Of a DNA stretch of 37,403 nucleotides, positions 4,148 through 30,608 are shown in pieces (the first letter of the stretch is position 1; each line of letters opens with the position of its first letter). The translations under genes and the position numbers were made by a program. The notes beneath the pieces are model-generated. The model saw nothing but the letters and a program-made list of their open reading frames with translations. It was not told where the DNA came from and did not search any database. This DNA is from Candidatus Magasanikiibacteriota bacterium (GTDB lineage Bacteria > Patescibacteriota > Patescibacteriia > Magasanikbacterales > UBA922): contig WJJZ01000009.1 in assembly GCA_014729395.1 (NCBI GenBank), positions 1-37,403 on the forward strand, in the 5' to 3' direction.

Positions 4148-4198
4148 GAGCTCGGATAAAAAAACATACGTCAATTTAACTTTAGTTAAGTAATTTTT

Positions 4199-4254
4199 AT
4201 TGTACAATTATAGTCAAATTATAGTATAATTATTGTAATTTACTGTAATTTACT
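4199..4254. repeat. 11-bp-unit array, right arm only (copy 2)
   Basis: ATTGTACAATT ATAGTCAAATT ATAGTATAATT ATTGTAATTT ACTGTAATTT ACT, then ATG 4255. Confidence 0.85.
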
Positions 4255-6386: not shown

Positions 6387-6469
6387 CAGTTCACAGCCAG
6401 CAGTTCACAATGGATTTATCCAATCCGGTTATGTCTCTTTCTGAGAACTGTTAGCTGCGAACTGTTATT
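6387..6469. repeat. Inverted heptamer array (CAGTTCA type) in the recombinase leader
   Basis: CAGTTCA CAGCCAG CAGTTCA CA (6387-6409) is inverted to TGAGAAC TGTTAGC TGCGAAC TG (6442-6464). Confidence 0.8.
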
Positions 6470-6868: not shown

Positions 6869-7327
6869 ATGTTTTATCTTATCCTACCCAACATCAGATC
6901 ATGTCACAATGTCGGCGCCATGTTTAGAACCGCCGATGCTTTTGGCATTAGTAGAATTTTTTTAGTAGGTTATACGGCCAGTCCGCCCAAAATTCAAATT
7001 GACAAAGTCGCGCTTGGTGCGGAAAAATGGGTACCTTGGGAAAAAAGGGAAGATTTGGCGAGTTTAATAAAAGAACTTAAAGAAAAAGGAGTAAAAATAG
7101 TAGCTTTAGAAAAAAATGATAAAAGTATTAATATTTCTTTAACAAAATTTGATGCCCCGCTTGCTTTAATAGTAGGTAATGAGGTGGAGGGGGTTGAACC
7201 GGATATATTAAAAATGTGTGATCAGATCGTGCATATTCCGATGTACGGGAAGAAGGAGAGTTTGAATGTTTCGGTTGCAGCCGGTGTGGCGATGTATGTA
7301 ATAAACAATAATTACACAATAATTTGA
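6869..7327 (+). CDS. SpoU/TrmH family RNA 2'-O-methyltransferase
   Basis: ATG 6869; NVGAMFRTADAFG, VGNEVEG and IPMYGKKESLNVSVAAG SPOUT motifs. Confidence 0.92.
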   Translation: MFYLILPNIRSCHNVGAMFRTADAFGISRIFLVGYTASPPKIQIDKVALGAEKWVPWEKREDLASLIKELKEKGVKIVALEKNDKSINISLTKFDAPLALIVGNEVEGVEPDILKMCDQIVHIPMYGKKESLNVSVAAGVAMYVINNNYTII

Positions 7328-7398
7328 CCATAATTACACAATAATTATTTTAATTATCGTCAAATCATTGTTAAATTATCATATAATTATAGTATTCT
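7300..7398. repeat. Inverted array of 11-bp units, gene-less copy 3
   Basis: AATTACACAAT AATTTGACCAT AATTACACAAT ... ATCGTCAAATC ATTGTTAAATT ATCATATAATT ATAGTATTCT; contains the upstream stop codon and ends at ATG 7399. Confidence 0.9.
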
Positions 7399-8067: not shown

Positions 8068-8115
8068 TTGAAACAATAATTCAACCATAATTATACAAAT
8101 ATTATACAATAATTT
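8068..8115. repeat. Left arm of the 11-bp-unit element, upstream of the four-helix-bundle gene
   Basis: TTGAAACAAT AATTCAACCAT AATTATACAAA TATTATACAAT AATTT. Confidence 0.88.
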
Positions 8116-8510: not shown

Positions 8511-8530
8511 AAAATAATTTATCCGTAATA

Positions 8531-8585
8531 ATTGTGCAATTATTGTGTAATTATTGTATAATTACTGTATAACTATTGTAACCCT
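8531..8585. repeat. Right arm of the 11-bp-unit element, downstream of the four-helix-bundle gene
   Basis: ATTGTGCAATT ATTGTGTAATT ATTGTATAATT ACTGTATAACT ATTGTAACCCT, then ATG 8586. Confidence 0.9.
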
Positions 8586-14970: not shown

Positions 14971-15050
14971 AAAAATTGGAGACTGGAGATTGGTGATTAG
15001 ATAAACAAAGAAATTGACTTACCAACCTCTAATCACTAGTCTCTAATTTT
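14971..15050. repeat. Inverted heptamer array (TRGAGAY type)
   Basis: TGGAGAC TGGAGAT TGGTGAT TAGATAA is inverted to ACCTCTA ATCACTA GTCTCTA; overlaps the rpiB stop. Confidence 0.8.
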
Positions 15051-17213: not shown

Positions 17214-17215
17214 AT

Positions 17216-17332
17216 AACTATACTATAATTATACAATAATTTGACGATAATTATACGATAATTTAACAATAATTATTTTTAAATTATGGTCAAATTATAT
17301 TTTAATTATTGTACAATTATTGTTAAATTTTT
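17216..17332. repeat. Inverted array of 11-bp units, gene-less copy 4
   Basis: Five left units (e.g. AATTATACAAT AATTTGACGAT AATTATACGAT AATTTAACAAT), then five right units (e.g. ATGGTCAAATT, ATTGTACAATT ATTGTTAAATT), ending 3 nt before the ATG. Confidence 0.92.
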
Positions 17333-20332
17333 ATGCCCTACAAAGCTAACAAAAATGAAAAAGAAGTCCTAAAATTTTGGGATGAAAATAAAATATTTGA
17401 AAAGTCGGTTGAATCAAAATCAAAGGATGAACCTTATGTTTTTTATGATGGGCCGCCTTTTGCTACGGGTTTGCCTCATTATGGTCATATTGTAGCTTCT
17501 CTTATAAAAGACACCGTACCAAGATTTTGGACAATGCGTGGATATAGAGTAGAGCGTGTTTGGGGTTGGGACTGTCATGGTTTGCCGATTGAAAATATTA
17601 TAGAAAAAGAGCTTGATCTCAAAACCAAGGATGATATTGAAAAATTTGGAATAGCTAAATTCAATGAAGCGGCCAGAAGTAAGGTGCTCATGTATGCGGA
17701 TGAATGGAAGAAAACCGTTCATAGAATGGGACGCTGGGTTGATATGGATAATGCCTACAAAACCATGGATATTGAATATATGGAAAGTATTTGGTGGGTA
17801 TTTAAGCAGCTTTGGGATAAAAAATTGATTTATGAAGGATATAAATCCATGCACATCTGTCCGCGCTGCGTGACGCCACTTTCAAATTTTGAAGTTACAC
17901 AGAATTATAAAGATATAAAAGATATTTCTGTTGTTGCTAAGTTCACAGTTCACAGTGGGCAGTTCACAGAAAAATTGAATTTGGATGGAAATCTATATAT
18001 TTTAGCTTGGACAACAACACCATGGACATTGCCGGGGAATGTTTTATTGGCTGTAGGAGAAGACATTGAATATTTGGTAGTAAATATTGATGGTAAAGAG
18101 GGTTCTTATATTGTTGCGAAAGATAGGGTTGAAGATATTGTGGGCGATGAGAAGTTTGAAGTAAAGAAAGAAATAAAAGGAAGTGAGTTGGTGGGTCTGG
18201 AATATGAACCACTATTTCCATATTTTGCAGATACGGAAAATGCTTTCAGAGTAGTCGCAGCTGATTTTGTGAATACTGAAGAGGGGACCGGTATTGTTCA
18301 TGTGGCACCGGCTTTTGGTCAAGACGATTATGAGCTGGGTCAGCGTGAAGAAACCGGCTGGATTCAGCACGTTACCATGGAAGGAAAATTTACAGAGGAT
18401 GTGTCAGATTTTGCCGGTCAGGAAGTGAAGCCAAAAGATGATCACAGTAAAGCGGACGTGGAGATTTTGAAATGGCTGGCGGCAAATAACAAACTTTTTT
18501 CCAAAATGAAATATGAACATAGCTATCCTCATTGTTGGCGTTGTGATACCCCGCTTCTAAATTACTCAACCGCTTCTTGGTTTGTAAAAGTAACTGATTT
18601 AAAAGAAGATCTGATTGAAAACAACAAAGAAATAACTTGGGTACCGGAACATATTAAAGAAGGTAGGTTTGGGAAGTGGCTGGAGGGAGCGAAGGATTGG
18701 GCGATTTCCAGAAATCGTTATTGGGGAACCCCGTTACCAGTTTGGCGTTGCCAAACTGAAAATCAGAAATCAGAAATCAGAAATCAGAAATTTTGTGATA
18801 ATTTGGTTATTATTGGTTCGGCGGAAGAACTTGAAAAAAGAACTAATCAAAAGGTGGATGACTTGCATAAACATATTGTTGATCAAATGGAATTTGAATG
18901 TGATAAATGCGGTGGCACTATGAAGCGTGTTCCTGAGGTGTTGGATTGTTGGTTTGAATCCGGTTCTATGCCTTATGGACAGATGCATTATCCTTTTGAC
19001 AATAAGCAAAAATTTGAAAAAGGTTTCCCGGCTGAATTTATTGCCGAAGGCCAAGATCAAACTCGAGGCTGGTTTTATACTTTGCATGTTTTGGCGACTG
19101 CCCTAACTCGTGGGAGTGAGCCGTCAATTCCTGTTGGTAGAACCACTTCTTCATTTAAAAATGTAATTGTAAACGGAATAGTATTGGCAGAAGATGGCAA
19201 GAAAATGAGTAAGAGATTACAGAATTACCCGGATCCAATGGAAGTCCTGGAAAAATATGGAGCTGATGCCATGAGATACTATCTCGTTAGCTCACCCGTG
19301 ATGCATGCCGAAAGTCTAAATTTTTCTGAAGAGGGGGTAAGGGAGGTTTATAACAAAGTTTGTAATACCTTGTGGAATGTTTTTAGTTTTTACCGTATGT
19401 TCAGTACCGATTCCACTGATTTAAAAACAGATTATGCGGATTCGGAAAATGTGCTGGATAGGTGGGTTTTGGCGAAATTAAATATTTTGATAAGAGATGT
19501 GACCAAAGGCATGGAAGAATATAAATTGGCGGAAGCCAGCCGACCTATACTTGAATTTGTTACCGAACTTTCTCAATGGTATGTAAGACGTTCGCGTGAC
19601 AGATTCAAAGGTGAAGATGAGAGAGATAAGCAAGCAGCGATTACAACTTTGCGCGAGGTTTTATTGACTCTCTCCAAAGTAATGGCGCCGTTTACCCCTT
19701 TTATGGCTGAGCAGATTTATCAGTATACAGTGGGCAGTTCACAGCCAACAGGGTTTGGTGATTCAGTACACTTGCAAGAGTGGCCGGAGGTGGACAATAG
19801 TAAGATTGATAGTAAAATTTTAAAAGATATGGAAATGGTAAGAAAAATTGTGGAGTTGGGTTTGTCTGCCAGAAAAGATGCTGGTGTAAAGGTGAGACAG
19901 CCTTTGAGTCAATTAGCAATTAACAATGAACAATTAACAAAGGATTTATTGGAGATTATTGCAGACGAACTAAACGTGAAATCCGTAGAGATGATCGACA
20001 GTGCGTCTCAGGGCAAGGACTGGGTTGAAAAAGAGGACGGTAATTTGAAGGTAGCTTTGAATGTAAAAATTGATGAAGAATTAAAGAAAGAAGGTATGGT
20101 ACGGGAGATAGTCAGGGCTATTAATTTAATCAGAAAAGAAAAAGGATATACTATTGATGATAGGATAAAGGTGAGTTATAAGACTTCTGATCCCATGCTT
20201 AGTGTGGTATTGGCTGATTTTAATGATGAAATTTGTAAAGGTGTTTTGGCTGATGAAATAATTGAAGGTGAAGGGGAAAAGGAAGTTGAAGTAAATGATA
20301 GTACTGTGAGTTTGAAAGTGGAGAGTGTTTAA
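17333..20332 (+). CDS. ileS: Isoleucine--tRNA ligase, type 2 (eukaryote/archaea-like)
   Basis: DGPPFATGLPHYGH, GWDCHGLP, WTTTPWTLP, DWAISRNRYWGTP, DQTRGWF and KMSK motifs. Confidence 0.97.
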   Translation: MPYKANKNEKEVLKFWDENKIFEKSVESKSKDEPYVFYDGPPFATGLPHYGHIVASLIKDTVPRFWTMRGYRVERVWGWDCHGLPIENIIEKELDLKTKDDIEKFGIAKFNEAARSKVLMYADEWKKTVHRMGRWVDMDNAYKTMDIEYMESIWWVFKQLWDKKLIYEGYKSMHICPRCVTPLSNFEVTQNYKDIKDISVVAKFTVHSGQFTEKLNLDGNLYILAWTTTPWTLPGNVLLAVGEDIEYLVVNIDGKEGSYIVAKDRVEDIVGDEKFEVKKEIKGSELVGLEYEPLFPYFADTENAFRVVAADFVNTEEGTGIVHVAPAFGQDDYELGQREETGWIQHVTMEGKFTEDVSDFAGQEVKPKDDHSKADVEILKWLAANNKLFSKMKYEHSYPHCWRCDTPLLNYSTASWFVKVTDLKEDLIENNKEITWVPEHIKEGRFGKWLEGAKDWAISRNRYWGTPLPVWRCQTENQKSEIRNQKFCDNLVIIGSAEELEKRTNQKVDDLHKHIVDQMEFECDKCGGTMKRVPEVLDCWFESGSMPYGQMHYPFDNKQKFEKGFPAEFIAEGQDQTRGWFYTLHVLATALTRGSEPSIPVGRTTSSFKNVIVNGIVLAEDGKKMSKRLQNYPDPMEVLEKYGADAMRYYLVSSPVMHAESLNFSEEGVREVYNKVCNTLWNVFSFYRMFSTDSTDLKTDYADSENVLDRWVLAKLNILIRDVTKGMEEYKLAEASRPILEFVTELSQWYVRRSRDRFKGEDERDKQAAITTLREVLLTLSKVMAPFTPFMAEQIYQYTVGSSQPTGFGDSVHLQEWPEVDNSKIDSKILKDMEMVRKIVELGLSARKDAGVKVRQPLSQLAINNEQLTKDLLEIIADELNVKSVEMIDSASQGKDWVEKEDGNLKVALNVKIDEELKKEGMVREIVRAINLIRKEKGYTIDDRIKVSYKTSDPMLSVVLADFNDEICKGVLADEIIEGEGEKEVEVNDSTVSLKVESV
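17940..17969 (+). repeat. In-frame heptamer tandem repeat in ileS
   Basis: AGTTCAC AGTTCAC AGTGGGC AGTTCAC AG (KFTVHSGQFT). Confidence 0.8.
18753..18790 (+). repeat. In-frame heptamer tandem repeat in ileS
   Basis: AAACTGA then four perfect AAATCAG units (QTENQKSEIRNQK). Confidence 0.92.
19405..19443 (+). repeat. In-frame nonamer-like repeat in ileS
   Basis: TACCGATTC CACTGATTT AAA AACAGATTA TGCGGATTC (TDSTDLKTDYADS). Confidence 0.55.
19721..19751 (+). repeat. In-frame heptamer tandem repeat in ileS
   Basis: CAGTATA CAGTGGG CAGTTCA CAGCCAA CAG; shares ACAGTGGGCAGTTCACAG (18 nt) with 17952-17969. Confidence 0.8.
19910..19940 (+). repeat. In-frame heptamer tandem repeat in ileS
   Basis: CAATTAG CAATTAA CAATGAA CAATTAA CAA (QLAINNEQLT). 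Confidence 0.82.
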
Positions 20333-30552: not shown

Positions 30553-30608
30553 AGTACAATAATTATTGTTTAATTATAGTCAAATTATTGTATAGTTATG
30601 GTGTAATA
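30551..30608. repeat. 11-bp-unit array, mostly right arm (copy 5)
   Basis: TTAGTACAAT AATT ATTGTTTAATT ATAGTCAAATT ATTGTATAGTT ATGGTGTAATA. Confidence 0.85.

Follow-up and report, generated by a model that had tools for sequence, protein, structure and literature searches.

How short arrays of a seven-nucleotide unit come to be read in frame inside an essential enzyme is the question raised by the isoleucyl-tRNA synthetase (IleRS) gene of a Candidatus Magasanikiibacteriota bacterium, in which a first-pass annotation had described five in-frame patches of 7- or 9-bp repeats. The gene lies in a contig of 37,403 nucleotides (WJJZ01000009.1), analysed over its whole length and called here the window, which is contig C4 of a genome (G000) of 1,014,364 bases in 17 contigs, with about 36% G+C, a completeness of 94.7% and about 88% of coding sequence. 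With somewhat better than even confidence, the patches can be regarded as members of genome-specific families of heptanucleotide-repeat modules, spread by templated copying at the DNA level and filtered by selection.

Heptanucleotide arrays in IleRS and across the genome

The host gene encodes a type 2 IleRS with the Pfam domains tRNA-synt_1, Anticodon_1 and DUF5915, its closest solved structures being of the eukaryote-type/IleRS2 kind (8wnd, 7d5c, 8c8u, 1ile). Arrays were detected with Tandem Repeats Finder (TRF), by self-match at a lag of seven nucleotides (nt), and by a period-7 scan requiring 19 of 21 matches (strict) or 17 of 21. The features of the gene are as follows.

17333..20332, + strand: coding sequence (CDS) of IleRS (type 2), 999 amino acids (aa), host of the patches (open reading frame translation, Pfam, structure matches)
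17940..17969, + strand: patch 1 (site 1); TRF unit AGTTCAC, 4.3 copies, 73% matches; lag-7 self-match 0.74
18760..18791, + strand: patch 2 (site 2); TRF unit AAATCAG, 4.6 copies, 100% matches; lag-7 self-match 1.00
19400..19445, + strand: patch 3 of the first-pass annotation (variable loop, site 3), no repeat; best lag 9, score 0.38
19727..19752, + strand: patch 4 (site 4), a single arm of the CAGTTCA family; lag-7 self-match 0.58, without a TRF row
19910..19940, + strand: patch 5 (site 5); TRF unit CAATTAA, 4.4 copies, 87% matches; lag-7 self-match 0.88
17952..17969, + strand: the 18-mer ACAGTGGGCAGTTCACAG, copy 1 (codon phase 1), exact match
19727..19744, + strand: the same 18-mer, copy 2 (codon phase 0), exact match

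Four of the five patches first claimed (1, 2, 4 and 5) are real period-7 arrays, while the fifth, at 19405, is at background: its score equals the median of random 46-nt windows from the same gene, and it is therefore not a repeat. TRF gave no row at 19405 or at 19721. Patch 1 contains one variant unit, CAGTGGG, and encodes FTVHSGQFT (aa 203-213) at the entry of the editing domain. Patch 2 is a perfect (AAATCAG)4 followed by AAAT, 32 nt in all, and its peptide NQKSEIRNQK is indeed flanked by two Cys, as first described, in the context RC-QTENQKSEIRNQKF-C, where relatives have C-x2-C, C-x4-C or no Cys. Patch 4 reads CAGTGGG-CAGTTCA-CAGCCAA-CAGG and encodes TVGSSQPT, and patch 5, which includes the variant unit CAATGAA, encodes the strand-turn peptide QLAINNEQLT.

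Patches 1 and 4 have the 18-mer in common, which is found exactly twice in the window and in the whole genome (17952 and 19727), whereas none of 100 shuffles yielded two matches. Since the two copies start at offsets of 619 and 2394 from the ATG, their reading frames differ (TVHSGQFT and YTVGSSQP), which confirms the earlier observation of 18 identical nt in two frames, and with it the view that the similarity resides in the DNA. Moreover, no inverted partner of any coding patch occurs within 400 nt, so that the description of the patches as single arms was right. At a word length of 18, four segments of IleRS are repeated, and patches 1, 4 and 5 account for three of them.

The period of seven stands out in the genome as a whole. 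Perfect arrays of at least 3.5 copies number 12 at period 7 and none at each other period from 4 to 15, and at 19/21 matches there are 17 period-7 arrays (10 in CDSs, 6 intergenic and 1 straddling) against 0-4 at periods 4-13. A period-7 array is present in 42 of 541 intergenic regions, compared with 4-8 for periods 5, 6, 8, 9 and 10, and the triplets CAG and CTG occur four times at a spacing of 7 nt in 13 and 14 places, respectively, but never at spacings of 5, 6 or 8-11. In 20 codon shuffles of all CDSs (934 crude calls), no period-7 array was obtained at 19/21 against the 10 real ones, and at 17/21 the mean was 1.25 and the maximum 3, against 20. The period-7 scan of all CDSs that the first-pass annotation had suggested thus gave a divided answer, the bulk autocorrelation at lag 7 lying at background and the discrete arrays far above the codon shuffles. 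That chance, codon bias or an assembly artefact produced the arrays is hardly credible. Both patch 3 and the autocorrelation over all CDSs do behave as expected by chance, but the shuffles reproduced neither the arrays nor the pair of 18-mers, and arrays are in frame and present in independent genomes and in metagenome contigs.

The arrays of the genome form families according to their unit: AAAATTC (8 arrays), AAGTGAT (8), AACTTAC (6), GGAGACT (4), a CAATTAA type (7, patch 5 among them) and a CAGTTCA type (7, including patch 1 and arrays in MnmA and TsaD, with intergenic members too). In spacers, the arrays are inverted pairs separated by 10-70 nt and adjoining gene starts. Two intergenic representatives lie in the window.

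6387..6467, no strand: intergenic element of the CAGTTCA family, with left arm CAGTTCACAGCCAGCAGTTCACA, spacer and inverted right arm at 6441-6467 (TRF, repeat search)
14975..14998, no strand: intergenic array of the GGAGATT/GGAGACT family (TRF, family grouping)

Coding and intergenic copies share strings longer than the unit. In fact, CAGTTCACAGCCAACAGG of patch 4 is also found in the arms of intergenic hairpins at C1:87200 and C5:83158; patch 5 has 24 nt, the variant unit CAATGAA included, in common with the intergenic array at C5:57107 and 17 nt with that at C6:231199; and patch 1 has 17 nt in common with arrays of the CAGTTCA family at C6:215177, C13:18154 and C16:26627, two of which are within TsaD and MnmA. 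Patch 2 has no copy of at least 17 nt elsewhere in the genome. The earlier proposal that the process which makes the intergenic arrays also writes the coding patches agrees, therefore, with the common unit families and the shared strings but not with patch 2, and the process itself is what we infer from them.

Dispersed short identity is also a more general feature of this genome, in which exact repeats of 18 nt or more form 1131 segments. Most of these lack a period, and their lengths are mainly 18-37 nt. About 7.7% of intergenic bases are within repeated 20-mers, and there is more short dispersed identity than we would expect for 1 Mb. Sharing at a word length of 14 is uninformative, as 6.5% of the 14-mers in CDSs recur.

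Recurrence at the same protein sites and length of the array blocks

The comparison covered 30 related genomes and a metagenome scan, in which no IleRS was closer than 68% aa identity, the nearest being at 65-68%; as a consequence, the ancestral allele could not be reconstructed. Perfect arrays of at least three copies number 4 in 29 IleRS loci of related genomes (148 kb) and 9 in 38 metagenome loci at an identity of at least 50% (162 kb), that is, 13 in 67 loci (identity at least 49%, 310 kb), and none in 35 IleRS loci below 50% identity (155 kb). Periods other than 7 are nearly absent from the relatives' loci. All 14 arrays that the relatives carry at 19/21 matches fall at sites 1, 2, 3 or 5 (L numbers denote the loci).

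aa 202-218 of this IleRS: site 1; relatives L003 TCAAATC, L031 AAGTTCA
aa 475-490 of this IleRS: site 2; relatives L037/L038 TTGCGAG
aa 692-707 of this IleRS: site 3; relatives L009 AGTCAAA, L037/L038 ATACAAA, L059 CTACAAC
aa 859-872: site 5; relatives L003 ACTTTCG, L013 AGTTACC, L033/L034 AATTTTC, L036 CAATTAA

Further site 5 arrays are those of L048 (AAGTCAA) and L046 (a decayed NAATTAA array). Site 3, where this genome has no repeat, bears heptamer arrays in four relatives. When the threshold is relaxed, site 4 is represented as well, by L176 with an array of AAGGAGT/AAGGAAT, a unit that also forms arrays in the flanking spacers of that locus. L177 has one array outside the five sites. The units found at one site vary between arrays and between genomes. 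The relatives' ArgRS and MnmA follow a similar pattern, one loop of ArgRS having been struck in three lineages.

Whether the arrays add to the protein or replace part of it was assessed in 53 distinct sequences, by comparing the length of each block between invariant anchors with the median of those orthologs that lack an array. At site 3 the array blocks differ from the median by -1, 0, 0 and +1 aa (array-free interquartile range 22-25), and at site 5 by 0, 0, -1, +2, +2 (a near-duplicate) and 0 aa (range 24-24), while at site 2 they exceed it by 12 and 10 aa (array-free median 13) and at site 1 they differ by +9 and -1 aa (median 18). In the IleRS of the window, the block of patch 2 is 12 aa above the ortholog median, that of patch 4 has 19 residues against a median of 13, and patch 5 involves no length change. 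Altogether, 8 of 12 independent IleRS arrays bring no added length. Since an array of 31-35 nt fills about 10-12 codons, existing sequence must have been replaced at sites 3 and 5. The choice between insertion and replacement, which had been left to an ortholog alignment, is therefore answered by site: sites 3 and 5 show replacement, and sites 1 and 2 include increases of 9 to 12 aa. The notion of whole units being inserted, with only some lengths tolerated, does not give the main picture, as sites 3 and 5 mostly take up an array with no change in length. In the relatives' ArgRS, arrays change the length by -1 to +3 aa.

An AlphaFold model of IleRS, built on a 42-sequence alignment, has a mean predicted confidence (pLDDT) of 88.8. 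Its only two segments with pLDDT below 50 (477-485 and 802-807) hold patches 2 and 4; site 3 is modelled as coil (pLDDT 56) and patch 1 across a strand end and a turn (pLDDT 82-86). Patch 5 is modelled as a confident strand-turn preceding a helix, in agreement with the strict conservation of length at site 5. The view that the patches occupy tolerant loops is thus upheld in that they fall where orthologs vary, although patch 5 is in no floppy loop.

The length data bear directly on purely local polymerase slippage in steps of 7 nt, with out-of-frame states purged by selection and no copying between loci, in which case the recurring units would simply be the heptamers that are slippery and free of stops. 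A slippage origin has been proposed in print, 7 nt matching the polymerase footprint (Mrazek 2007, via PMC4679880 and PMC4692102). It would suit the perfect arrays that occur singly in two relatives (G007 and G008), patch 2 of the window, and the net growth of some loops by about +7, +10 to +12 and +14 aa. Nevertheless, stepwise +7 intermediates would frameshift essential genes, protein length is preserved by the arrays of sites 3 and 5, long arrays are absent even from intergenic DNA, and strings of 18-25 nt with the same variant units are common to distant loci, all of which makes slippage alone improbable.

Module size, shared units and the search for a responsible protein

In the genome and in 769 kb of relatives' loci, the longest perfect period-7 run is of 34 nt, and lengths cluster at 30-34 nt. 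The unit vocabulary is distributed in patches over the order. The CAGTTCA pattern, with up to three mismatches, was found in 18 of the 101 genomes searched, with 15 matches in the genome of the window, 78 in G065, which belongs to a different family, 8 in G086 and 6 in G013, and with none in G001, of the same genus. (AAATCAG)3 is present in 4 of the 101 genomes. G065 has AAATCAG arrays in four CDSs, IleRS among them. The 32-nt module (AAATCAG)4AAAT is at site 2 of IleRS here, and at site 3 of IleRS and in one further CDS in G065, two more CDSs of which have a three-unit array and a variant array. The module is read as GANQKSEIRNQKSDNV in the IleRS of G065 (site 3) and as TENQKSEIRNQKFC in that of the window (site 2). 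Arrays of CAATTAA also occur in G065, the control for this pattern being invalid in that its reversal yields an identical repeat. These two genomes of different families have three unit families in common (CAGTTCA, AAATCAG and CAATTAA). Neither AAGTGAT nor GGAGACT arrays were found in five genomes tested.

According to the reading favoured here, each module would consist of about 4.5 units, with perfect runs of up to 34 nt, and arrays would arise and spread by templated miscopying in a 7-nt register. In a local mode a tract would be homogenised, while in an inter-locus mode an existing array would be copied over another place, often as a replacement of equal length and not as an insertion. Selection would keep a genic module only if its unit is stop-free in every frame of the coding strand and if the site tolerates a new hydrophilic peptide with a period of seven aa. 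As 7 is not divisible by three, a heptamer array gives the same 7-residue-periodic peptide in every frame, and a stop-free array can therefore settle in any codon phase; the reverse complement of CAGTTCA contains TGA, and its orientation inside genes is therefore fixed. IleRS would have five sites tolerant in this way, so that unrelated arrays would recur there, the patches being tolerated passengers which probably do nothing for the enzyme. From the perfect repeats, the shared strings of variant units, the length-neutral replacement, the recurrence at the same sites with different units and the patchy vocabulary, we infer copying at the DNA level together with selection, and no role of the patches in IleRS.

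The size and the distribution of the modules also fit a dedicated micro-mobile element or enzymatic writer, that is, a specific protein with a length ruler (a nuclease, recombinase or reverse transcriptase) which would cut out or synthesise modules of about 32 nt and paste them, the modules moving horizontally between lineages. Such a writer, which deserves consideration although it is unlikely, would account for the cap at 34 nt and the clustering at 30-34 nt, for the identical (AAATCAG)4AAAT in three contexts of two genomes from different families, and for the patchiness of the CAGTTCA family, present in 18 of 101 genomes and so abundant in G065 when it is missing from G001. On the other hand, 8 of the 12 independent IleRS arrays are without added length, which transposition would not give, and neither terminal repeats nor target duplications were seen. 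More doubtful still is a length-measuring DNA-writing activity that would overwrite tracts of about 32 nt with heptamer sequence from a horizontally exchangeable, genome-specific vocabulary; if real, it would constitute a new micro-mobile element or a templated patch editor, rewriting the surface loops of essential proteins at constant length.

The search for proteins that could act in such a way included Cas1, reverse transcriptases and transposases. Integration of the type known from CRISPR spacers, considered in view of a size of about 32-33 nt, was rejected because Cas1 (PF01867) has no match in the genome, the control being positive in 7 of 14 genomes; this absence counts against the writer as well. 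One strong match to a Y1 transposase (PF01797), similar to those associated with repetitive extragenic palindromes (RAYT-like), was found on contig C7, of 2.7 kb (2747 bases). It is flanked by GC-rich REP hairpins, with no heptamers, and adjoins an IS4-like open reading frame and the start of a sensor gene, which we take to be Bacteroidota-like. The gene content of C7 is unlike this lineage, and the contig may not belong to the genome. A REPIN-RAYT system was discarded, as the sole strong Y1 transposase is not flanked by heptamers. The single reverse transcriptase gene (C11:140349-141593, equal to L201:1850-3094), of an unassigned UG/DRT-like type by PADLOC, overlaps a downstream gene for a 568-aa ABC-ATPase-like protein and has an inverted AAGTGAT array in the spacer upstream. 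This favours the writer as a weak positional link, in that it concerns one of the eight AAGTGAT arrays.

A further explanation is that the arrays are functional, either as sites for a heptad-reading protein or as useful 7-aa-periodic loop peptides, their placement in coding loops being then attributed to a genome that is about 88% coding. The intergenic copies are inverted pairs adjoining gene starts, the same loops have been struck repeatedly, and hosts that handle tRNA are over-represented. In addition, the TATCACT unit of the AAGTGAT family fits WATCACW, which we take to be the heptad consensus of the omega repressor. However, the units differ by array and by genome at the same site, so that no single reader or peptide is conserved, and the perfect repeats point to recent copying and not to selection at the level of bases. 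Moreover, the genome, at a completeness of 94.7%, has no match to the ribbon-helix-helix family RHH_1 (PF01402), whose control was positive in 11 of 14 genomes, and none to Omega_Repress (PF07764), whose control was silent in all genomes. A function for the arrays is thus very improbable. None of the RHH, omega, Cas1 and RAYT candidates in this genome could be linked to the arrays.

Several observations weigh against the spread of modules by templated copying with selection, and temper the confidence placed in it. At the lowest TRF threshold there are 136 period-7 arrays against 153 at period 9, and the lag-7 autocorrelation over all CDSs is at background (0.2708), so that the signal is confined to discrete arrays of high identity. 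In the relatives' MnmA, most arrays lengthen the protein, by a net +7 to +15 aa. The sharp cap near 34 nt departs from what plain slippage predicts, and a vocabulary held in common with G065, of another family, and not with G001, of the same genus, fits the horizontal spread of an element at least equally well. The perfect arrays of G008 (ACTTTCG) and G007 (AGTCAAA) are singletons in their genomes, and like patch 2 here they are not explained by copying between loci. Furthermore, no event has been caught in the act, the nearest genome being 65-68% identical in IleRS. Metagenome contigs from three runs of one study contain a relative of about 97% identity, in pieces, but patch 1 alone is bridged in the alignment, where one piece spans it without gaps. 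The pieces end at 18733 and at 19724/19746, which leaves patches 2 and 4 unbridged, and the stretch 19906-20087 around patch 5 is equal in length but too diverged to align. With no close genome and a single patch bridged, slippage, conversion and insertion are not directly separable.

In one of these runs (X1), a contig matches only the 31-nt string of patch 5 (window 19911-19941), its flanks being unrelated on both sides, and consequently the same module occupies another context in that community.

In any case, a mechanism has to account for a fixed module of about 4.5 units, for replacement without change of length at loops of conserved length, for genome-specific vocabularies shared patchily between families and for repeated, independent strikes on the same loops of IleRS, ArgRS and MnmA. 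Through such arrays, essential enzymes of streamlined genomes can have their surface loops rewritten wholesale, ten residues at once, which matters for the alignment, phylogeny and structure prediction of proteins from candidate phyla.

Known repeat systems, array hosts and further repeats

To our knowledge, bacterial repeats of heptanucleotides have been on record since 1990, with no accepted mechanism or function. Short tandemly repeated repetitive (STRR) sequences with heptanucleotide units were reportedly described in Calothrix by Mazel in 1990, and Elhai is said to have treated small dispersed repeats in cyanobacteria in 2008. A literature search, to which supplementary files were external, found no paper on in-frame heptamer arrays in candidate-phyla bacteria.

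The modules are best read as the small-genome, coding-region form of the known bacterial class of heptanucleotide repeats, comprising the STRR sequences and the long simple sequence repeats (LSSRs) of prokaryotes, which have diverse units and no known function, and for which a replication-linked origin was proposed (Mrazek, Guo & Shah 2007, via PMC4679880 and PMC4692102). Common to both are the head-to-tail 7-nt units, as in patches 1, 2, 4 and 5, and the excess over other unit lengths. In contrast to that class, the arrays here stay below 5 units (34 nt), 10 of the 17 strict ones are inside genes, essential ones included, and different lineages have them at the same protein loops, often as length-neutral replacements. 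In the summary given in PMC4679880, coding regions are expected to hold units with a length that is a multiple of three.

Among individual families, the TAACTGA direct repeats of marine Beggiatoaceae, cyanobacteria and Bacteroidetes (MacGregor 2015, PMC4679880) have one dominant unit and lie mostly just upstream of start codons. They resemble the arrays described here in a CAGT/ACTG-core heptamer (reverse complement TCAGTTA, compared with CAGTTCA), in a patchy occurrence across phyla suggesting horizontal spread, and in some copies within open reading frames, the orientation of which is set by stop codons. Those copies, as far as the source describes them, are at protein ends, whereas here there are many unit families, with copies deep inside essential enzymes, and inverted pairs in spacers. 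The GGGAATC and GGGGA(T/C)T heptamers of Xanthomonas and Nostoc (Rehm 2015, PMC4692102) are likewise intergenic arrays, sometimes hairpin-capable inverted pairs, and variable between close relatives; they are described as G-rich, with G-quadruplex potential, as extending to long arrays (a 26-mer and beyond) and as exclusively intergenic, in contrast with the A/T-rich or CAGT-type units, the short modules of fixed size and the coding copies found here.

The likeness to Rickettsia palindromic elements (RPEs) that the first-pass annotation had suggested extends to the outcome and not to the anatomy. RPEs are palindromes of about 150 bp, and they lengthen the host protein by tens of residues (PMC10969869). 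As in that system, in-frame repeat families with their own peptides are found in unrelated housekeeping genes, at positions compatible with the fold, but the coding patches here are single tandem-heptamer arms of 26-32 nt, with no palindromic partner and most of them with no added length, inverted pairs existing only among the intergenic copies. Membership of the RPEs, or of the miniature inverted-repeat transposable elements, was consequently rejected: no palindrome of about 100-150 bp with terminal inverted repeats is present in the coding patches (no partner within 400 nt), and the nine arrays of sites 3 and 5 change the length by -1 to +2 aa, gains of +9 to +12 aa being limited to sites 1 and 2.

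The annotated array hosts that handle tRNA are IleRS, LeuRS, ArgRS, MnmA, TsaD, QueA, TrmD and Fmt. Two more hosts are translation-related methyltransferases (PrmC and an RsmI-like methylase), other housekeeping hosts are UvrA, MurB, PGK, RibE and a citrate-synthase-like protein, and the envelope-related ones comprise GT4 glycosyltransferases and a Wzy-like protein, in addition to one unknown host. All of them keep open frames. Phase-variable contingency loci, in which a change of copy number switches a dispensable and usually surface-related gene, were discarded as an interpretation, the hosts being IleRS, LeuRS, ArgRS, MnmA, TsaD, TrmD, QueA, Fmt, MurB, UvrA, PGK and others, with every frame open. 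The tRNA-handling hosts make up 8 of about 22 annotated ones, far above their share of the genome, in a post hoc count with no null matched for length or conservation.

Two synthetases showed other insertions. In the LeuRS of this genome (C1:76333-79158, equal to L105:134-2959), which also contains a perfect (AATTCAA)4.6 array, the editing domain is followed by an inserted NUDIX domain (residues 384-493, by Pfam). In two relatives (L023 from G017 and L026 from G027), IleRS has an insertion of about 190 aa after residue ~505, beginning ...FVRHGE(S/T)E..., a motif which presumably resembles a histidine-phosphatase (PGAM-like) domain.

Finally, a second class of repeats is limited to spacers and consists of period-11 arrays (ATAATTATACA and its complement), often back-to-back inverted. 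In the window they lie at 551-630, 4197-4254, 7305-7347, 8072-8114, 8526-8580, 17214-17329 and 30559-30607, and the 116-nt array at 17214-17329 stops 4 nt short of the IleRS start codon. Upstream of the IleRS gene of another genome (L003:1-80, the start of contig C24 of G008), there is a perfect 10-nt tandem repeat, AACGTATCTC, in 8 copies.

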